A DNA stretch of 27,375 nt, taken from positions 1 through 27,375 of the forward strand of contig CAZBPC010000040.1 in NCBI GenBank assembly GCA_964493715.1, read 5' to 3'. This document shows positions 14,963 to 23,143 of this stretch, piece by piece. This DNA comes from an uncultured archaeon (lineage in GTDB: Archaea; Asgardarchaeota; Lokiarchaeia; Sigyniarchaeales; SOKP01). The translations under genes and the position numbers were made by a program. Numbering within the stretch: position 1 is the first letter of the stretch; the number at the start of each line of letters is the position of its first letter. The notes beneath the pieces are model-generated. The model did not search any database, was not told the DNA's origin, and saw nothing but the letters and a program-made list of their open reading frames with translations.

Positions 14963-15511
14963 ATGAAAACTCGTAACTTTTACATGATAGTGGCAAGTGT
15001 TTTAATTGGACTTATAATTTTTTGGTTACTGATGATTGCTTTTTCACAATTTAACCCTTTTAATGATCCCAATAAAATAACGATAGATGGTAATGGAACA
15101 ACAAAATCTATAACGATATCTATTAGTCAATTAACATCGGGAAAATATGAAATGGTGGAGGATAAAATTTTCCACATAAAAAATAGCTTTGATACTGAAT
15201 CCGATATCACATATTCGGGAATTTCACTTTGGAGCATCCTTGTAGAAGAAAATCTTCTTGTTCAATCATCTTCTGATTTAGAATTCCGGTTCTATGCACG
15301 GGATGGATATAGTTCCCCAAAATTTCTAAATCTTTCAATCATAGAAGCATTTCCAAATTTAGTAATCTTAGCAACTAAAGAGAACGGAGTACCTCTTACT
15401 ATAGAAGGACCCTTGAGATCAGTAATGGATCAATCAATTATGCCTGAAGGTGAATATAGTTCACAATATTCTGTGCAACAATTAAGTTTAATAACTATTA
15501 ACATAGCTTGA
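14963..15511 (+). CDS. Membrane-anchored single-domain molybdopterin-oxidoreductase-fold protein, no Cys (PruR-like)
   Basis: N-terminal TM; YSGISLWSIL, FYARDGY, VILATKENGVPL..GPLRSV, VQQLSLITI follow the Oxidored_molyb consensus. Confidence 0.75.
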   Translation: MKTRNFYMIVASVLIGLIIFWLLMIAFSQFNPFNDPNKITIDGNGTTKSITISISQLTSGKYEMVEDKIFHIKNSFDTESDITYSGISLWSILVEENLLVQSSSDLEFRFYARDGYSSPKFLNLSIIEAFPNLVILATKENGVPLTIEGPLRSVMDQSIMPEGEYSSQYSVQQLSLITINIA

Positions 15512-16170
15512 AATCAAAGTGGCTACTCATGAAAGAAGTTAAACAAGATAATATTAACGAGTTAGAAGATGTTTCTAAAAACGATGATGGTTATAGAGAA
15601 ACAGGTTATGATTCTATTCATAAAAAAAAAATTACGAATTTAGATTATATTTATTCTGCAATCATCGGAGTTTTAGGGGGAATAATATCGAGTTTGATTC
15701 CATTTAGTTTATTGATAAAAGTGTGGTACCCAATCACTGGAGGCACACAACTTGTAAGTGGGCATCATGTCATTTGGGGGGTAATTGTATATGGACTTAC
15801 AAAAAAAAAAGAAAACATTATTTTAACAATGGTGACTAAAGGGGTCTTAGAGTTTCTATTGGGAGATCCATGGGGTATACTGATATTGTTCGTAAACTTT
15901 ATTGAAGGTATTTTTCTTTCTTCTGGTTTTTATATTATGGAAATATTAGGAGAAGGTGAGACCAAATTAGGATGGGGAATTGCTGGTGGTATAGGAAATT
16001 TCTTTCAAGCTCCTTTTTTTTGGATCATAAATCAACGCTGGTACTTACATTGGTCTTTATGGGCTTTAGCTTTTATTTTTGCTTTTATTTCAGGTGTTTT
16101 AATAACGGGTCTTCTTGGTAGAGCAATAAAAAATACATTAATTGAAGCCGGTGTCCCTACAACATATTAA
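15508..16170 (+). CDS. ECF transporter S component (YkoE-like)
   Basis: About six TMs, G-HH-IWG..., KGVLEFLLGDPWG...FIEG pattern; directly upstream of ECF A and T genes. Start may be ATG at 15529. Confidence 0.75.
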   Translation: MKSKWLLMKEVKQDNINELEDVSKNDDGYRETGYDSIHKKKITNLDYIYSAIIGVLGGIISSLIPFSLLIKVWYPITGGTQLVSGHHVIWGVIVYGLTKKKENIILTMVTKGVLEFLLGDPWGILILFVNFIEGIFLSSGFYIMEILGEGETKLGWGIAGGIGNFFQAPFFWIINQRWYLHWSLWALAFIFAFISGVLITGLLGRAIKNTLIEAGVPTTY

Positions 16171-16179
16171 CATACGAGT

Positions 16180-17991
16180 GTGATGATTAAATCCTTGTCA
16201 ACCAAAGCTCTTTCTTTTACTAATTTTTCATTTATTTATGGAGAGGATAAGACTAAACAGCCTAGTATCTCTAATATAACTTTTAATTTAAATGAAGGAG
16301 AGACTTTAGTTTTAGCGGGTCCTAGTGGTAGTGGCAAATCAACGATATCTTATGCAATAAATGGAATCATTCCTTGGAGACAAAAAGGTTTTGCTAAGGG
16401 AGAAGTAAAGATTTTCGGGAAAAATATTTGGGATTATGAGTTTTCTGCACTTTCTAAAATTGTTGGATTGGTAAAACAAAATCCAAGTGAACAATTAGTC
16501 ACTTTTACAGTTAGAGACGAGATTTCGTTTGGATTAGAAAACTTAAAATATCCAGAAGATGAGATTACATCCAAAGTTGAACAAGTAAGTAAAATGATGG
16601 GAATCACAGACATTTTAGATCGCCCAATCGAACAATTGAGTGGAGGTCAAAAGCAATTAACCGTACTTTGCTCGTTTTTAGTGATGAATCCGAAAATTCT
16701 TATTTTAGATGAACCAATTGCTTTCTTAGATCAAGAATCTGAGAGTTTTTTACTGAATAGGTTAAAAAAATTGGTCAAAACTAAAGAAATCCCAATAACA
16801 TTAATCATCATTGAACATAGGTTGTCCCGAGTTCTTGATATTGCAGATAAATTAATCATTTTAAATGATATGGGTAATATTTCACTGAACGGGAGTGTAA
16901 AAGATGTATTGGAAAAAAATTTCGCTCAATTGAAAAAATGCAATGTAAGAGTTCCGTGGTTAATTGATGTTTTTGATGAGTTTAAGAGAAAAACACAATT
17001 AAAAGATGATTTTCAACATTCAATTGACTTTCATTTTTATTTTGATTATATTTCAAAACTAGAACAAAATGAATTAAAAATTATTTATAAAATTATTCAA
17101 AGTAGAGAAATTAATGCTGAAGAATTAAAAAAATACGAAAATTTAGACCAAGTTATCGATTTAAAAGACACTTATATTAAATCCTTAAAATTCAAGAAAT
17201 CTAGAAATAATAATGACGAAATTCCTTATGACAATAGTAACATCCTCCTTGAGACCAAAGATCTCTGCTTTTTTTACCCAAATAGCGGAATAAGAGCATT
17301 AAATGGGATCAACCTTCAAATTCAAAAAGGAGATTTCATCGGTCTTGTCGGTCCTAATGGTTCAGGAAAGACCACACTTCTTTATTTATTAGCAAATTTA
17401 TATCAACTAACTTCTGGAGCTATTTTTTATAAAAATCAATTGCTAAATGATATTGATTCCTATGAATATGCGCAAAAAGTAGGATTTATCTTCCAGAATC
17501 CTGAGAATATGATTTTTAAATCCACCATAAAAGATGAAATTTTATATGGTCCCAAAAATTTCGGTATTCTTTCTCGCATTAAGGATGAATACTTAGAGAA
17601 ATTAATAGGTATGATCGGAAAAGAAAATCCTTTGAAAAATCCTTATCAATTAAGCTGGGGTCAAAAACGGCGATTAAATCTAAGTTCGATATTCATTTAT
17701 GATCCCGATATAATCCTGTTAGATGAACCTTTTATAGGTCAGGATCAAAAGACAATCGAAGCTTTAGTCGAGACTCTCTATATTGAAAATAAAAGAGGAA
17801 AAACTATCATAATCTCCTCTCATGACTATCACCTCTTATTAAAATATACGAAAAGGATTATTGAATTAAATAAAGAAGGCTCTGTTCTGTATTATGACAC
17901 GAAAAGCAATTATTTCTCCAAACATAGTAATCTTGGACCAATTTTACTCTTGAATGAAATAAATAGAAGATTAAATGAGGATTTTATCTAA
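16180..17991 (+). CDS. ECF transporter fused double ATPase (EcfA-A', YkoD-like)
   Basis: Two Walker A (GPSGSGKS, GPNGSGKT), Q-loops QNP, signatures LSGGQKQ and LSWGQKRR, Walker B ILDEP/LLDEP, H-loops. Confidence 0.93.
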   Translation: MMIKSLSTKALSFTNFSFIYGEDKTKQPSISNITFNLNEGETLVLAGPSGSGKSTISYAINGIIPWRQKGFAKGEVKIFGKNIWDYEFSALSKIVGLVKQNPSEQLVTFTVRDEISFGLENLKYPEDEITSKVEQVSKMMGITDILDRPIEQLSGGQKQLTVLCSFLVMNPKILILDEPIAFLDQESESFLLNRLKKLVKTKEIPITLIIIEHRLSRVLDIADKLIILNDMGNISLNGSVKDVLEKNFAQLKKCNVRVPWLIDVFDEFKRKTQLKDDFQHSIDFHFYFDYISKLEQNELKIIYKIIQSREINAEELKKYENLDQVIDLKDTYIKSLKFKKSRNNNDEIPYDNSNILLETKDLCFFYPNSGIRALNGINLQIQKGDFIGLVGPNGSGKTTLLYLLANLYQLTSGAIFYKNQLLNDIDSYEYAQKVGFIFQNPENMIFKSTIKDEILYGPKNFGILSRIKDEYLEKLIGMIGKENPLKNPYQLSWGQKRRLNLSSIFIYDPDIILLDEPFIGQDQKTIEALVETLYIENKRGKTIIISSHDYHLLLKYTKRIIELNKEGSVLYYDTKSNYFSKHSNLGPILLLNEINRRLNEDFI

Positions 17992-18881
17992 TGAAAGAAA
18001 AGAATATGGCATTAGATAATAGGAATAATACTTTTGCCTACGTTCCGGGGAATTCGGTATTTCACAAACTAAATCCCCTATCAAAATTGATTTTTCTAAT
18101 TCTCCTTACTATTTTTACTTTTATTGCAAGAAGTTTAATACTCCTTTCGATGATTTTACTTCTTATTTTTCTCTTAGCTTTAGTTAGTGAAATATCCATG
18201 AAAAGATTGATTCGAAAAACTCGATTTATTGTTGTGCTTTTATTATTTGGTGTTATTTTAAATATCTTTTTTAATGCAATCCCAAATGAACGGGAAATAA
18301 TTTTATTTTATTTATTTAATCTAAACTTCTTACCTATTCGTAGATTAGCTGTATATTTTTCTTTAAAAGCATTATTTATAGTATTAACATTATATTCATC
18401 TACAATTTTATTTACAAATACCACATCTAACAAAGATTTCGTATATTCCTTAATGCGATTAAATATCCCGTATAAATTTTGTTTCAGTTTTATGATTGGT
18501 ATACAATTTATCCCTACTATAGAAGCAGAAGCTAAGACAATTGCATTAGCTCAAAAAGCACGTGGTTTTGGCTTGGAAAAAGTTAATACTTTTAAAAGAG
18601 CATATAATTTAATATTTGAGCGTTTAATAACTACCTTAGTCGCAATCCTTAGAAAAGGGCATACTACATCTATATCCATGGAAAATAGGTGTTTCGGTTT
18701 ATATAAAAAAAGGACGAACCGAATAATGGTGAAATTTAAGTTAATCGATATTGTTTTCATAGTGATTTGCTTTTTAGTTTTCACTTCTTTACTTCTATAT
18801 CAGTTAAATATTCTTCCACTCCCTCAGGTTCCTTCCTTATATCAAATTTTTTTACAATTATTCAAGAGATACACTCTATAA
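17991..18881 (+). CDS. ecfT: ECF transporter transmembrane T component
   Basis: SVFHKLNPLSKL, FTNTT, QFIPT, AQKARG and SMENRCF coupling motifs; TAATG overlap with the ATPase gene. Confidence 0.92.
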   Translation: MKEKNMALDNRNNTFAYVPGNSVFHKLNPLSKLIFLILLTIFTFIARSLILLSMILLLIFLLALVSEISMKRLIRKTRFIVVLLLFGVILNIFFNAIPNEREIILFYLFNLNFLPIRRLAVYFSLKALFIVLTLYSSTILFTNTTSNKDFVYSLMRLNIPYKFCFSFMIGIQFIPTIEAEAKTIALAQKARGFGLEKVNTFKRAYNLIFERLITTLVAILRKGHTTSISMENRCFGLYKKRTNRIMVKFKLIDIVFIVICFLVFTSLLLYQLNILPLPQVPSLYQIFLQLFKRYTL

Positions 18882-18925: not shown

Positions 18926-19798
18926 ATGGTTGATGTTTCTGAGACTGTAAAAAAAATACAAGATAAATTTAACATCATTGGAAGATCTGAAGAAATAAGG
19001 AAAATCATTATCGCTAGATCCGTTGGGAAGAATGTACTAATTGAAGGTGATGTTGGTGTCGGGAAAACCACGATTGCAAGAGCTGTAGCATCTTATTTCG
19101 ATTCCAATTTCTACAGAATCGATTGTTCAGAGGAAACACTTCCCCATAATTTAGTTGGATATTTCGATCCCCCTCTCGCGATATCTAAGGGATACAATGA
19201 AGAATCATATATTTATGGTCCCCTCGCGCAAGCTATGCTTTCAGGAGGGTGTTTATTTATAAATGAAATAAATAGGATGCCTGAAAGCACCCAAAATTCT
19301 TTACTAACTGCATTAGACGAGAGGATTCTTGAAATTGCTAAATTGAAAACGATAGAGGCTAACGAAGGTTTTTTTACCATTGCAACCCAGAATCCCACAG
19401 CACATATAGGAGTAACTGTTTTAGGTGAAGCAATAAAAGACCGCTTTATTTGGATCAAATTAGAATATCAATCTCCAGAAGAAGAAATCGAAATTATAAA
19501 AAAGGAAGCACATTTTAATGGCCCGGATAGTAATAAAATCGCTCTTATTTCTCAAAAAATCGTTGAGCTATCAAGAAGAACTAATAATATAATGCGAGGA
19601 AGTTCTGTTAGAGGTGCAATCGATTTAGCAGACATCATATTAAAATCAGAAAACTTCAAAAGCTCTAAAGCTTGGGTTGAAGCTGCTGTAATGTCTCTTT
19701 ATAATAAAATTGAACTAGAGGATGGAGTAACAAGATCAAAATCAGAAATTATAACGGATATCGTACTATCTGTATTGAATCAAACGGATTTTCAATAA
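18926..19798 (+). CDS. MoxR-family AAA+ ATPase (CoxD/GvpN-like)
   Basis: IIGR, Walker A GDVGVGKT, GPL, Walker B variant LFINEINR, QNSLL, ATQNP, EAIKDRF, SVRGAI. Confidence 0.92.
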   Translation: MVDVSETVKKIQDKFNIIGRSEEIRKIIIARSVGKNVLIEGDVGVGKTTIARAVASYFDSNFYRIDCSEETLPHNLVGYFDPPLAISKGYNEESYIYGPLAQAMLSGGCLFINEINRMPESTQNSLLTALDERILEIAKLKTIEANEGFFTIATQNPTAHIGVTVLGEAIKDRFIWIKLEYQSPEEEIEIIKKEAHFNGPDSNKIALISQKIVELSRRTNNIMRGSSVRGAIDLADIILKSENFKSSKAWVEAAVMSLYNKIELEDGVTRSKSEIITDIVLSVLNQTDFQ

Positions 19799-20907
19799 TC
19801 GATGACTTCTCTTCATTAAATAAAGAGAATGAGAATGAACGCCTTTATGTTAGATTAACCGAGAGAATTCCAGATAAGGAAATTTTAAGATACGAAATAA
19901 TCAGAAAAAGCAGGAAAAAACCAGATTATTACGAGCATTTAGCAAATTCATTGGATTATAAACAGATCAAGGAATTGACTTATTTAGCAATCAATTATAA
20001 GAATTTAGAAGCAATCATGGGTCTGCTTAAATCAAATGTCTATGCTGCAACTGATGCACTGGATTGTAATGAAGGCGTGGAATTTTTTGCAGAAAAATCA
20101 AAAGATTCTGCTGCATCAATGGCAGAAGTATATTTTTTCATTAGGCGTCCTATATCGAAAAAATATAAGTACATATTTAGGAGATTAGCTCGCCAAAGCA
20201 TAATTAAAACATCCTTAAAAATTACTAGTAAAAGTATAAGAGGTAATTTTAAGAAAATTGTACCAAATTATAAAATTGGTATGCCTGAATTTGATTTAGA
20301 TGAAACTATTCAACATAACCCTCTAAAAGTGCTAGAAAGAACGCTCACCTATAACGATATATATGGGATTAAAAGACAAAGACAGAAGAGGAAAGTGGTA
20401 TTAATTCTTGATACAAGCGGGAGCATGTATGGAAGGTTATTATTAAATGCTGCTTTAACCACATCTGTTCTTGCATATAACATGGAAAAAGAAGACTTTG
20501 CTATAGTGTTATTTAATTCTACAGCAATGCTTCTAAAGAAAATTGATCAAAAAAAACCTGTAAATAACATAATTGATGAAATATTGGATTCTGAAGCCGT
20601 TGGTTTTACAAATATCGAAATTGGGCTTGAAAAAGGACTAAAAGAACTTAATAAAATCAGAGAAAAAACTCGTCATAAATTTGGCATTCTCATTAGCGAT
20701 GGAAATTTTAATAGAGGTATTAATCCTCTTTATTTAGCTAAAAAATTTCCGAAACTGCATGTGATTGGCATACCTGCGGGAAATGATGCAGATCGAGGGA
20801 TTGATACCTGTCGGGAGTTAGCGAGAGCAGGGAGAGGAAAATTTTACGCTGTTAAAGATTATAAGGAAATTCCTCGAGCTTTAATTAATTTATTATCCCG
20901 AACCTGA
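19795..20907 (+). CDS. vWA-domain protein (CoxE-like partner of MoxR); 5' end uncertain (ATA start, TTG at 19951, or frameshift fusion)
   Basis: MIDAS LDTSGSM...GFTN...LISDG. Frame is open from 19714 with protein-like sequence upstream of the ORF-track TTG at 19951 and no ATG/GTG before it. Confidence 0.85.
   Translation: MIDDFSSLNKENENERLYVRLTERIPDKEILRYEIIRKSRKKPDYYEHLANSLDYKQIKELTYLAINYKNLEAIMGLLKSNVYAATDALDCNEGVEFFAEKSKDSAASMAEVYFFIRRPISKKYKYIFRRLARQSIIKTSLKITSKSIRGNFKKIVPNYKIGMPEFDLDETIQHNPLKVLERTLTYNDIYGIKRQRQKRKVVLILDTSGSMYGRLLLNAALTTSVLAYNMEKEDFAIVLFNSTAMLLKKIDQKKPVNNIIDEILDSEAVGFTNIEIGLEKGLKELNKIREKTRHKFGILISDGNFNRGINPLYLAKKFPKLHVIGIPAGNDADRGIDTCRELARAGRGKFYAVKDYKEIPRALINLLSRT
20713..20907 (+). 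repeat. Direct repeat copy 1: last 65 codons of the vWA gene
   Basis: Aligns without gaps to 22874..23068; 27 mismatches in 195 nt by manual count (about 86% identity). Confidence 0.95.
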
Positions 20908-21005
20908 TAATTTTTCAGGTCCTATGATATCAAGTATTAATCATTGATTTCTCCTCCTAATTTAGAGAATAGTGCTTTAATCGAATTTCTATCTCAAACT
21001 TAAGT

Positions 21006-21196: not shown

Positions 21197-22825
21197 ATGA
21201 AATATAATAGAAAATTGAGAAAACTTGAGAAAGTGAGAGAAAATATGAATGAAGAAATGTATGATATTGTTGTTATAGGAGCAGGTCCTGGGGGCTACCA
21301 TGCTGCTATTCGAGCTGCTCAATATGATGCTAAAGTAATGTTAATCGAAAAAGATAAAGTAGGCGGAACTTGTCTAAATAGAGGGTGTATTTCTACGAAA
21401 GCTCTTTATAGTTCAGCAAGTTTAATTGAAAAGATTAAGAATCATGCCTTTAATTACGGAATCGATATTAATGGCGAAGTAAAACCAAATTTTAATAGAG
21501 CAGTTGATCGGAAAAATCGAATAATAAATCAATTAATTGAAAATATTGAAGTTCTTATAAGACAAAGAAAGGTTGATTTATCCTATGGAAGTGGGAAATT
21601 AATGGGCGGATCAATTGAAAGTGCTTTTAATGTGAAAATTGAGGGGAAAGACGAAAAAATAGTTAAAGCTAAACGTCTAATTATAGCTACAGGTTCGAAA
21701 CCAGCGGAAGTACCCTCCTTTAATATTAATCATGAAAGAATTTTAACCAGTGATGATATTCTTTCAAATAATTTTAAGACTATCCCAAATACAATTTTGA
21801 TTATTGGAGGTGGAGTAATTGGTTGTGAATTTGCAAATATTTTTAACAGATTTGGCTCAAAAGTGATCATCTTAGAATATTTACCATCTATAATAGCTAT
21901 GGAAGAACCTTCTGTTGCTCGAGAATTAAAAAAAAAATTTAGAGATATGGGCATTGAAGTATTTGAAGATCGAAGAGTTTTAGAGATTAATACTACTGAT
22001 TCTCACGTAAACGCTATAACATGTGATGCAAATATCCCCAAAGATCAAGTAGAATCTGCAGAAAAGCGAGTTTTTAATGCTGATCTTTGCCTTGTTTCAA
22101 TTGGAAGAATTCGGTGTATTGAACATCTTGGAATTGAAAATTCAAAAATAAAAATTAGGAGAGGAAGTATTCAGGTAAATGAAAAGACTTTGGAAACTGC
22201 AGAGAGAGGAATTTATGCAATAGGGGATGTTACTGGTGGGTTAATGTTAGCTCATGTAGCAAGTTATGAAGCTGATATTGCTGTGTTTAATGCATTAAGT
22301 AGTATTGGTGGATTTGATACATTTCCAGTTAAAACAGATTATAATGTCGTTCCAAGTTCAATTTTTACAGCATATGAAATTGCTTCAGTAGGACTTAAAT
22401 CCAAATCTCTTGAGTTGCAAGACGTTCAAATTAGAACTGGTCGATTTGGTTATGCCGGTCTTGGAAAGGCTAAGTGTATGGGTGAGGAAGAGGGATTTTT
22501 AATGATGAATGTTAACGAAAAAACCGATGAAATATTAGGAGCGTCTTGTATAGGTGTTGCTGCTCCTGAATTAATATCTGAAATTTCTTTAGCAATGAAG
22601 AATGGACTTACAGTTCACGAAATTACAGATACCATTCATAGCCATCCCACTTTATCAGAAATGGTATTAGAAGCTGCTGAAGATGTTTATGGTTTATCTA
22701 TTCATAGAGCAAGACGTCGAATTAAGGAAAAAATTGATCTTCAAGAGGATATGATTCAACATTTCATAAAAAGTGAAAAACTTAAGAAGTATGGACTTGT
22801 TTCCTTAGCGATGACAGGTGATTAA
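21197..22825 (+). CDS. lpdA: Dihydrolipoamide dehydrogenase (E3) with C-terminal extension
   Basis: GAGPGGY FAD motif, GGTCLNRGC redox disulfide, IATGS, GGGVIGCE, YAIGD, MLAH, HSHPTLSE. Real start may be ATG at 21245. Confidence 0.93.
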   Translation: MKYNRKLRKLEKVRENMNEEMYDIVVIGAGPGGYHAAIRAAQYDAKVMLIEKDKVGGTCLNRGCISTKALYSSASLIEKIKNHAFNYGIDINGEVKPNFNRAVDRKNRIINQLIENIEVLIRQRKVDLSYGSGKLMGGSIESAFNVKIEGKDEKIVKAKRLIIATGSKPAEVPSFNINHERILTSDDILSNNFKTIPNTILIIGGGVIGCEFANIFNRFGSKVIILEYLPSIIAMEEPSVARELKKKFRDMGIEVFEDRRVLEINTTDSHVNAITCDANIPKDQVESAEKRVFNADLCLVSIGRIRCIEHLGIENSKIKIRRGSIQVNEKTLETAERGIYAIGDVTGGLMLAHVASYEADIAVFNALSSIGGFDTFPVKTDYNVVPSSIFTAYEIASVGLKSKSLELQDVQIRTGRFGYAGLGKAKCMGEEEGFLMMNVNEKTDEILGASCIGVAAPELISEISLAMKNGLTVHEITDTIHSHPTLSEMVLEAAEDVYGLSIHRARRRIKEKIDLQEDMIQHFIKSEKLKKYGLVSLAMTGD

Positions 22826-22873
22826 ATCTTTTACTATACATCTCTTCAATATTTTCTTCCTAAAAATCGTTTT

Positions 22874-23068
22874 AGAGGCATTAATCCTCTATATTTAACT
22901 AAAAAATTTCCTAAATTACACGTTATTGGTATACCTGCTGGAAGCGATGCTGATCGTGGGATTGATACTTGTCGGGAGTTATCAAGAGCAGGAAGAGGTA
23001 GATTTTATGCTGTTAAAGATTATAAGGAAATTCCTCGGGCTCTTATCAATTTATTGTCCCAAACCTGA
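22874..23068 (+). pseudogene. Direct repeat copy 2: orphan 3' fragment of a diverged vWA allele
   Basis: RGINPLYLTKKFPKLHVIGIPAGSDADRGIDTCRELSRAGRGRFYAVKDYKEIPRALINLLSQT*; no start codon; 5 amino-acid changes versus 18 synonymous codon changes. Confidence 0.9.
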
Positions 23069-23143
23069 TTTTTTTTCTAAATTCTAATAACATATGCGAT
23101 TCCCCGCACATTCATTGTATTTTTCACGCAATAGGGGGAGAAT

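Follow-up and report, generated by a model that had tools for sequence, protein, structure and literature searches.

We examined a 27,375-nucleotide (nt) stretch of DNA from an uncultured archaeon of the Asgardarchaeota (Lokiarchaeia, Sigyniarchaeales; contig CAZBPC010000040.1), hereafter the window, in which the gene of a MoxR-type AAA+ ATPase runs directly into a reading frame for a vWA domain protein that lacks an evident start codon of its own. All features described here lie on the forward strand. The ATPase open reading frame occupies 18926–19798, as deduced from the list of open reading frames and from Pfam, encodes 290 amino acids (aa) and ends in ACG GAT TTT CAA TAA, with the TAA stop at 19796–19798. 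The vWA frame is the -1 frame of MoxR: preceded by a TGA at 19711–19713, it is open from 19714, and its first ATG, GTG or TTG is the TTG at 19951. In MoxR phase and one codon before the stop lies G_GAT_TTT (19786–19792), a proposed -1 slippery heptamer in which GAU (Asp) would occupy the ribosomal P site and UUU (Phe) the A site, and the 0-frame stop 3 nt beyond it is a possible stimulator of the shift. The frame entered after such a shift spans 19792–20907 (371 codons, then a stop at 20905–20907). Conceptual translation over the junction reads ...GFSIIDDFSSLNKENENERLYVRLTERIPDKEILRYEIIRKSRKKPDYYEHLANSLDYK..., and the shifted product would reach 289 + 371 = 660 aa; the junction-spanning sequence expected of the window's fusion is ...NQTDFSIIDDFSSLNK, with TDFSIIDDF as the junction core. 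The original prediction, made from the window alone, proposed that a programmed frameshift at this heptamer yields both a 290-aa MoxR and a fusion of about 660 aa; its sequence statements and coordinates all proved correct on recheck. The indel check that it called for likewise returned an intact junction: contigs of independent metagenome runs carry neither insertion nor deletion there, one (X3) differing over 19600–20050 by a single substitution (19935) and two others (X4) overlapping 19766–19795.

To compare orthologous loci, we queried with the vWA protein, its sequence beginning at the codon that overlaps the MoxR stop (19795). It found full-length matches from its residue 1 in genomes of the same genus. 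Phylum-wide, 256 of 398 genomes gave a match at E <= 1e-25, and nearly all of the open frames measured 360–397 aa; the names on close database homologues are those of Lokiarchaeota, Promethearchaeota, Hermodarchaeota and Thorarchaeota metagenome-assembled genomes. We collected 97 loci, namely the 30 best matches of this search, 17 more from the same order or class, 20 from the top of the phylum-wide list and 30 that cover families otherwise unsampled. One (L028), whose contig ends before MoxR, was left out, and 96 loci from 24 families were analysed; the three of family f21 (L098–L100, E 1e-29 to 1e-33) may be paralogues. The vWA frame lies in the -1 phase in 85 of the 96 loci (36 genera, 20 of the 24 families), which bears out the predicted conservation of phase. 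Eight loci (L052, L056, L066, L069, L094, L095, L099 and L100, of families f18, f21, f24 and f32) have the +1 phase, and in three the vWA part is in frame with MoxR (L096 and L097 of f24, L098 of f21). The median distance from the opening of the -1 frame to the stop is 28 nt among -1-phase loci, and in many of them just 7–13 nt, so any change of frame is confined to the heptamer. The +1-phase loci carry a conserved TTT TTT CGN (F-F-R) 12–30 nt 5' of the MoxR stop, and are either ordinary two-gene pairs or products of a +1 shift on UUU_CGN.

The heptamer itself is retained throughout. In each of the 85 -1-phase loci there is an in-phase heptamer with identical fourth to sixth bases, of the form NNNTTTN in 84 and AAACCCT in one, in line with the expectation of GAT TTT or an alternative slippery heptamer. 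The commonest forms are GGATTTT (36 loci), AAATTTT (16), TTTTTTC (8) and TTTTTTA (8); AGATTTT, AAATTTC and TTTTTTT occur three times each, CCATTTT and GGGTTTT twice, and TCATTTT, CCCTTTT and CCTTTTT once. In 83 of the 85 loci the heptamer either lies 3 nt from the stop (52) or abuts it (31). The background rate of in-phase NNNTTTN, counted over 24071 codon positions in the bodies of these MoxR genes, is 3.2% (762 occurrences); the junction heptamer is present beyond chance. A conserved [DN]-F protein motif could account for the TT of the Phe codon. It cannot account for the T in third position of the P-site codon or for the G before that codon, bases relevant to slipping alone. Without exception (84 of 84 loci, 35 of 35 genera), the codon ahead of the final Phe has T in third position, whether it specifies D, N, H, P, L, R, G or F; given the codon usage of each locus the joint probability of this is 10^-8.1, a figure that treats genera as independent and overstates the case. 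Similarly, a G immediately precedes GAT in 27 of 29 loci (those of the window's genus together with L029 and L030 of the neighbouring family f2), in codons as diverse as ATG, TCG, GTG, GCG, ACG, CTG, TTG, GAG and AAG, which specify eight amino acids (M, S, V, A, T, L, E and K). Across those 29 loci, just 11.8% of third codon positions are G. Around the junction, some 25 nt (GGATTTTCAATAATCGATGA...) are nearly invariant in the window's genus, and the flanks vary at synonymous sites. From these comparisons we conclude that the heptamer is selected at the nucleotide rather than the residue level. It also permits the A-site tRNA, and partly the P-site tRNA, to re-pair in the -1 frame.

Beyond the heptamer, the -1 frame is open over the site and continues into a conserved coding region that has no start of its own. 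As anticipated, 67 of the 85 loci lack any ATG, GTG or TTG between the opening of the vWA frame and +30; of the other 18, eight have a single such codon, one that overlaps a TGA stop, and ten have another candidate. Five loci of the window's genus are devoid of a canonical start within the first 240 nt. The codon overlapping the MoxR stop varies by lineage (ATA, TTA, CTA or GTA), a variability that speaks against the competing explanation raised with the original prediction, a non-canonical ATA start at 19795. Annotated database homologues of the vWA part scatter in length from 296 to 367 aa: gene callers agree on no start. Shine-Dalgarno-like motifs 5' of the junction are scarce (a 5-mer in 2 and a 4-mer in 10 of 85 loci), though the same motifs precede the MoxR ATG in just 11 and 22 of 80 loci, respectively, and the measure discriminates weakly between the two. 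The roughly 50 codons between the junction and the first canonical start had been said to look like protein, and this impression holds. Variability at the three codon positions of the vWA frame between +3 and +155 is 0.130/0.058/0.264, to be compared with 0.152/0.064/0.380 in the MoxR body and 0.097/0.023/0.351 in the vWA body, and orthologues within the genus align as protein from the first residue past the junction. In other lineages a [SP]-D-[DE] motif is found at +5 to +35, 5' of any start codon. Judged by this pattern of substitution, the extension evolves as coding sequence of the vWA frame, and both halves of the locus are under purifying selection. A conserved ATG does occur nearby (19802–19804 in the window, within a CCGATGA equivalent in other lineages), yet it stands in the MoxR frame and meets a stop within a few codons; lying inside the D-D/D-E motif, it is a by-product of GAT GA codons and no start.

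In-frame fused relatives, also foreseen, do exist. In two of the loci surveyed (L096 and L097) one uninterrupted frame, of 724 and 732 aa respectively, runs from MoxR through F-F-R and a long acidic linker into vWA, and an exhaustive search of 1.84 billion representatives returned 26 proteins of 563–711 aa among the 150 matches listed, in which the match is C-terminal. Among these, all eight that were tested carry AAA_5 at about residues 31–185, and seven of the eight a C-terminal Pfam vWA domain. A word-indexed search restricted to longer forms had found no fused forms; it was the exhaustive search of representatives that recovered them. Thus the predicted trans-frame product exists elsewhere as an ordinary protein, and an architecture of N-terminal AAA+ and C-terminal vWA, split by a conserved frame change and with fused relatives present, is as in the frameshifted chlD genes (fs-chlD). 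One genus combines both states, L096 and L097 being fused in frame and L095 split with a +1 phase, which indicates that the split or fused condition shifts over short evolutionary distances. The window's genus also contains paralogous open frames of 830–860 aa (e.g. G033:C73:5095-6093 and G021:C6:28496-29491) whose C-terminal parts share 24–30% identity with the vWA protein; judging by this similarity, they may represent already-fused AAA-vWA proteins.

Evidence for a downstream RNA element depends on the lineage. In a -1 frameshift cassette a stimulatory hairpin or pseudoknot is looked for 5–9 nt downstream of the slippery site. The original prediction named a 7-bp stem (TTCTCTT 19807–19813 with AAGAGAA 19823–19829, enclosing a 9-nt loop) and cautioned that its spacer was long; the stem does begin 14 nt past the heptamer. 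It exists, and it is the minimum free energy structure of 19793–19852. At -4.9 kcal/mol, however, it is no more stable than shuffled sequence (z = +0.54, with 140 of 200 dinucleotide shuffles folding equally well or better), and neither a consensus fold nor covariation was recovered. RNAalifold, applied to the genus's 27 loci less five near-duplicates (L009, L011, L014, L015 and L022), 22 in all, does not return it and proposes a different, implausible pairing that involves the heptamer itself; across loci the named positions pair in 78.1% of cases, against 76.6% in shuffles and 75.3% when partners are slid by -2. The hairpin at 19807–19829 is thus weak, and folding, shuffles and alignment lend no support to a role for it. 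The further suggestion that its loop pairs with a downstream AATG to form a pseudoknot is not supported: the second helix would follow the stem with no connecting loop, and the hairpin loop is unconserved. Other lineages present hairpins 7–10 nt past the heptamer with compensatory changes: a GGAGG/CCUCC-type hairpin (three of five pairs, 11 loci), an 8-bp stem in family f15 (five of eight pairs, six loci) and a GC-rich 7-bp stem in family f16 (one of seven pairs, four loci, -11.9 kcal/mol). These hairpins probably help the shift in the lineages that have them. The sole feature common to nearly all loci is the 0-frame stop 0–3 nt past the heptamer, and by analogy with pea enation mosaic virus 2 (PEMV2) this adjacent stop probably helps the shift as well.

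Taken together, we propose that MoxR and the downstream vWA frame are one recoded gene expressed via programmed -1 frameshifting, a reading to which we assign a probability of about 0.8 on comparative evidence. Under this model, most ribosomes would read GAU UUU CAA, terminate at the UAA at 19796 and release the 290-aa AAA+ ATPase. A minority would slip one base backward on G_GAU_UUU (19786–19792), the A-site tRNA-Phe re-pairing from UUU to UUU and the P-site tRNA-Asp moving from GAU to GGA, and would go on in the -1 frame with UCA AUA AUC GAU GAC. The shift would append a disordered acidic linker, a helical domain and a vWA domain containing a metal ion-dependent adhesion site (MIDAS), giving the 660-aa fusion. 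The precedent of ChlI/ChlD and of other MoxR-vWA pairs suggests that both products would co-assemble into mixed AAA+ rings; the efficiency of the shift would then set the number of tethered vWA arms per ring. The more far-reaching proposal, in which an Asgard-wide conserved -1 shift operates in a cellular, non-mobile gene through a PEMV2-like G_GAU_UUU_NNN_stop signal, with the stop as main stimulator, and provides AAA+ rings with a fixed complement of tethered MIDAS arms, is tentative, and we would place it slightly below an even chance.

Several observations weigh against a frameshift. The heptamer is non-canonical, for only one P-site pair would be kept after the slip, and in the window's family the hairpin is weak, lies 14–15 nt from the heptamer and finds no support in shuffles or covariation. 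A conserved [DN]-F(-F) marks the MoxR C terminus, with F-F-R kept in the in-frame fusions too, and on this evidence conservation of the U-run could be partly constrained by the protein. The surveyed loci are moreover related by descent, and their counts do not equal independent events. The remaining points bear on the foremost alternative, namely that two proteins are made and that, after termination at UAA, ribosomes re-initiate without a canonical start at the stop-overlapping codon (here ATA 19795) or one next to it. The 4-nt NTAA/NTGA overlap is the classical geometry of coupled genes, and in 11 of the 85 -1-phase loci, all with a TGA stop, the overlap is TTGA, ATGA or GTGA, such that coupled initiation is possible there. 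Besides, an ATG lies 10–13 nt past the MoxR stop in four of the eight +1-phase loci (the three of f18 and L094 of f32), which suggests from sequence that the vWA protein is functional as a separate chain in some of these lineages; with an apparent ATG of its own in +1-phase families, a free vWA protein seems viable. Variable phase or ATGA overlaps had been named in advance as outcomes that would refute the frameshift, and both are encountered, if in a minority of loci only (+1 phase in 8 of 96, four families; overlaps in 11 of 85). Nonetheless, the near-cognate start is unconserved (ATA, TTA, CTA or GTA by lineage), canonical overlapping codons are seen only with a TGA stop, where they are almost automatic after a T-run, and an SD-like 5-mer precedes the junction in just 2 of 85 loci. 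Above all, re-initiation leaves the in-phase heptamer, the P-site T (84 of 84) and the preceding G (27 of 29) unexplained, and we regard it as unlikely.

The frameshift also fares better than three further accounts of the junction. Translation of the vWA protein might start at a downstream canonical codon, the TTG at 19951 (318 aa), leaving the 50 or so codons before it as untranslated spacer; this TTG is indeed the first canonical start, and gene callers annotate forms of 296–340 aa. The putative spacer, however, has the coding pattern of the vWA frame, and within the genus its translation aligns from residue 1 onward; orthologues differ in where their first canonical start falls (five loci of the genus having none within 240 nt), and a start at residue 53 would delete two helices of a confidently predicted domain (residues 27–37 and 43–50, encoded 5' of TTG 19951). 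A downstream start seems very unlikely in consequence, and much the same holds for transcriptional slippage, in which RNA polymerase rather than the ribosome would slip on the T-run. While conceivable on the runs of six or seven T found in 19 of the 85 loci (TTTTTTC, TTTTTTA and TTTTTTT), slippage by polymerase generally requires longer runs than the four T of the window and of most loci, and conservation follows the heptamer (in the third base of the P-site codon, the base before that codon and the phase), features that a polymerase would not need. Finally, the existence of in-frame fused relatives could point to an assembly or sequencing indel, or to the decaying pseudogene of a once-fused gene. 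This explanation is effectively refuted by a phase shared by 85 loci of other genomes, by independent contigs without an indel and by purifying selection on both halves.

A MoxR-class AAA+ ATPase adjoining a vWA/MIDAS partner is a familiar arrangement, shared with NorQ/NorD, CbbQ/CbbO, RavA/ViaA and CoxD/CoxE, all names of MoxR-vWA pairs. In those two-gene pairs each partner is a free-standing chain with a start of its own, unlike the vWA partner described here, which has no start and would be tethered by recoding. Two fixed-ratio products of a -1 shift within one AAA+ complex are known from Escherichia coli dnaX (tau and gamma); there the shifted product is the short one, whereas here it would be the long one. 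The closest parallel lies in the frameshifted chlD genes, invoked as a precedent by the original prediction and rightly so: a -1 shift splits the AAA and vWA parts and reaches 10–63% efficiency in E. coli reporters, and 23 such genes are described from six genera, including Methanocaldococcus and Methanococcus, with poly-A slip sites and fused relatives in other taxa (PMC3711429). Genes of this kind are described as widespread, some of them in genomes without a tetrapyrrole pathway or a large chelatase subunit (PMC9227772). Our locus resembles fs-chlD in that one gene would yield both an AAA+-only protein and an AAA+-linker-vWA protein, with the frame change at the boundary of AAA and linker, mostly in the -1 direction, at AT-rich slip sites, with annotation as two adjacent genes, in-frame fused relatives and, in lineages other than the window's own, downstream structure. 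It differs in its MoxR-type ATPase (AAA_3/AAA_5), in its Asgard archaeal host and in having a U-run heptamer that abuts the stop, in place of the poly-A A_AAA_AAR tested in the Mg-chelatase cluster (PMC3711429). The slippery site, in turn, has viral counterparts in PEMV2 and related plant viruses, as had been claimed. G_GAU_UUU_UGG_UAG is the proven -1 site of the umbravirus PEMV2, in which changing the stop into a sense codon is reported to lower frameshifting strongly (PMC4737148, PMC5009743). The heptamer is identical and the 0-frame stop lies 3 nt downstream in both (CAA UAA here, UGG UAG in PEMV2); yet PEMV2 is, in these accounts, a viral RNA translated by eukaryotic ribosomes with the aid of extra long-range elements, as opposed to a cellular archaeal gene, and a convincing downstream structure was not found in the window's family. 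The archaeal cases of -1 frameshifting gathered in a 2016 review are scarce, comprising tail genes of haloarchaeal viruses, "magnesium chelatase" genes of Methanococcales and a possible case in Sulfolobus (PMC5009743). Our literature search returned no description of an Asgard MoxR-vWA frameshift, although article supplements and the Chelatase DB, which may list Asgard genes, lay outside its reach. Should the frameshift be real, the annotation of hundreds of Asgard genomes, in which ATPase and vWA protein are now annotated apart, the latter with an arbitrary start, would be corrected, and the logic of deriving AAA-only and AAA-vWA subunits from one gene would reach from chelatase-type genes to MoxR-type chaperones. 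It would also provide a compact frameshift signal with which the ribosomes of the archaea most closely related to eukaryotes could be tested, and a ready means of exploring how far Asgard ribosomes resemble eukaryotic ones in keeping the reading frame.

Regarding the encoded proteins, profile matches assign the ATPase to the MoxR class of AAA+ proteins. Against Pfam, its open reading frame scores 74.3 bits with AAA_3 (1.1e-20, cut-off 27) and 72.5 bits with AAA_5 (4.7e-20, cut-off 22), and its relatives in the PDB are MoxR 2r44, the best single-domain match at 66.5 bits, NorQ and CbbQ. We rejected a special kinship to eukaryotic midasin: although midasin heads the PDB matches by E value, its 8e-38 sums six AAA domains of 23–36 bits each, less than the 66.5 bits of 2r44. 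The vWA part passes Pfam VWA (35.4 bits, cut-off 23.8) as well as VWA_2, and an AlphaFold2 model built on a 30-sequence alignment (mean predicted local distance difference test score, pLDDT, of 83.5) divides the product of the vWA frame into a disordered stretch (residues 1–21), a confident helical domain (27–147) and a vWA fold (about 195–370). The first corresponds to an acidic, polar linker at 19795–19857 that is predicted to be disordered (pLDDT <50) and holds the conserved DD motif, and the helical domain to 19873–20235. The vWA domain, supported by Pfam and by fold matches, lies at 20377–20904 and includes a complete MIDAS motif, D-T-S-G-S at 20410–20424 (D206, S208 and S210) being completed by T272 and D302; in the alignment D206, S208, S210 and D302 are invariant and T272 nearly so (at least 90%). 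The modelled fold matches vWA domains at up to E 1e-7, including NorD of NorQ-NorD complexes. The "CoxD/CoxE-type" label initially attached to the pair was not established: VWA_CoxE scores 25.0–25.5 bits, under its cut-off of 26.4, and the neighbouring genes are an energy-coupling factor (ECF) transporter and an oxidoreductase, not cox genes. Orthology to ChlD/BchD was also considered and rejected, given 19 bits with TIGR02031 (BchD-ChlD, cut-off 499.55) and 23.6 and 22 bits with TIGR02442 (cut-off 779.45). Pfam Mg_chelatase matches residues 16–56 only, with no stretch passing on its own, and CobN/ChlH (PF02514) was not found in the window's genome, which is 100% complete by markers, the same search being positive in 5 of 14 named genomes used as control.

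As for the genomic neighbourhood, an ECF-type transporter lies directly 5' of MoxR in the window and consists of an S component with an ABC_cobalt domain (15508–16170), a duplicated ATPase (16180–17991) and a CbiQ/EcfT T component (17991–18881). An ECF T component recurs at 4 of the 96 loci and the oxidoreductase at one; within 1.5 kb we found no conserved partner or client gene, and no cluster of flanking open reading frames spans more than two families. The 3' side of the vWA gene in the window shows a further peculiarity. A direct repeat of 214 nt with 85% identity (20703–20916 and 22864–23077) takes in the 3' end of the vWA gene and recurs past the gene of a pyridine-nucleotide-disulphide oxidoreductase (21197–22825). 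The second copy lies within an open frame of 80 codons and shares 90% protein identity with vWA residues 304–370, and it looks as if insertion or recombination had brought the oxidoreductase segment of about 2.2 kb to the end of the vWA gene.

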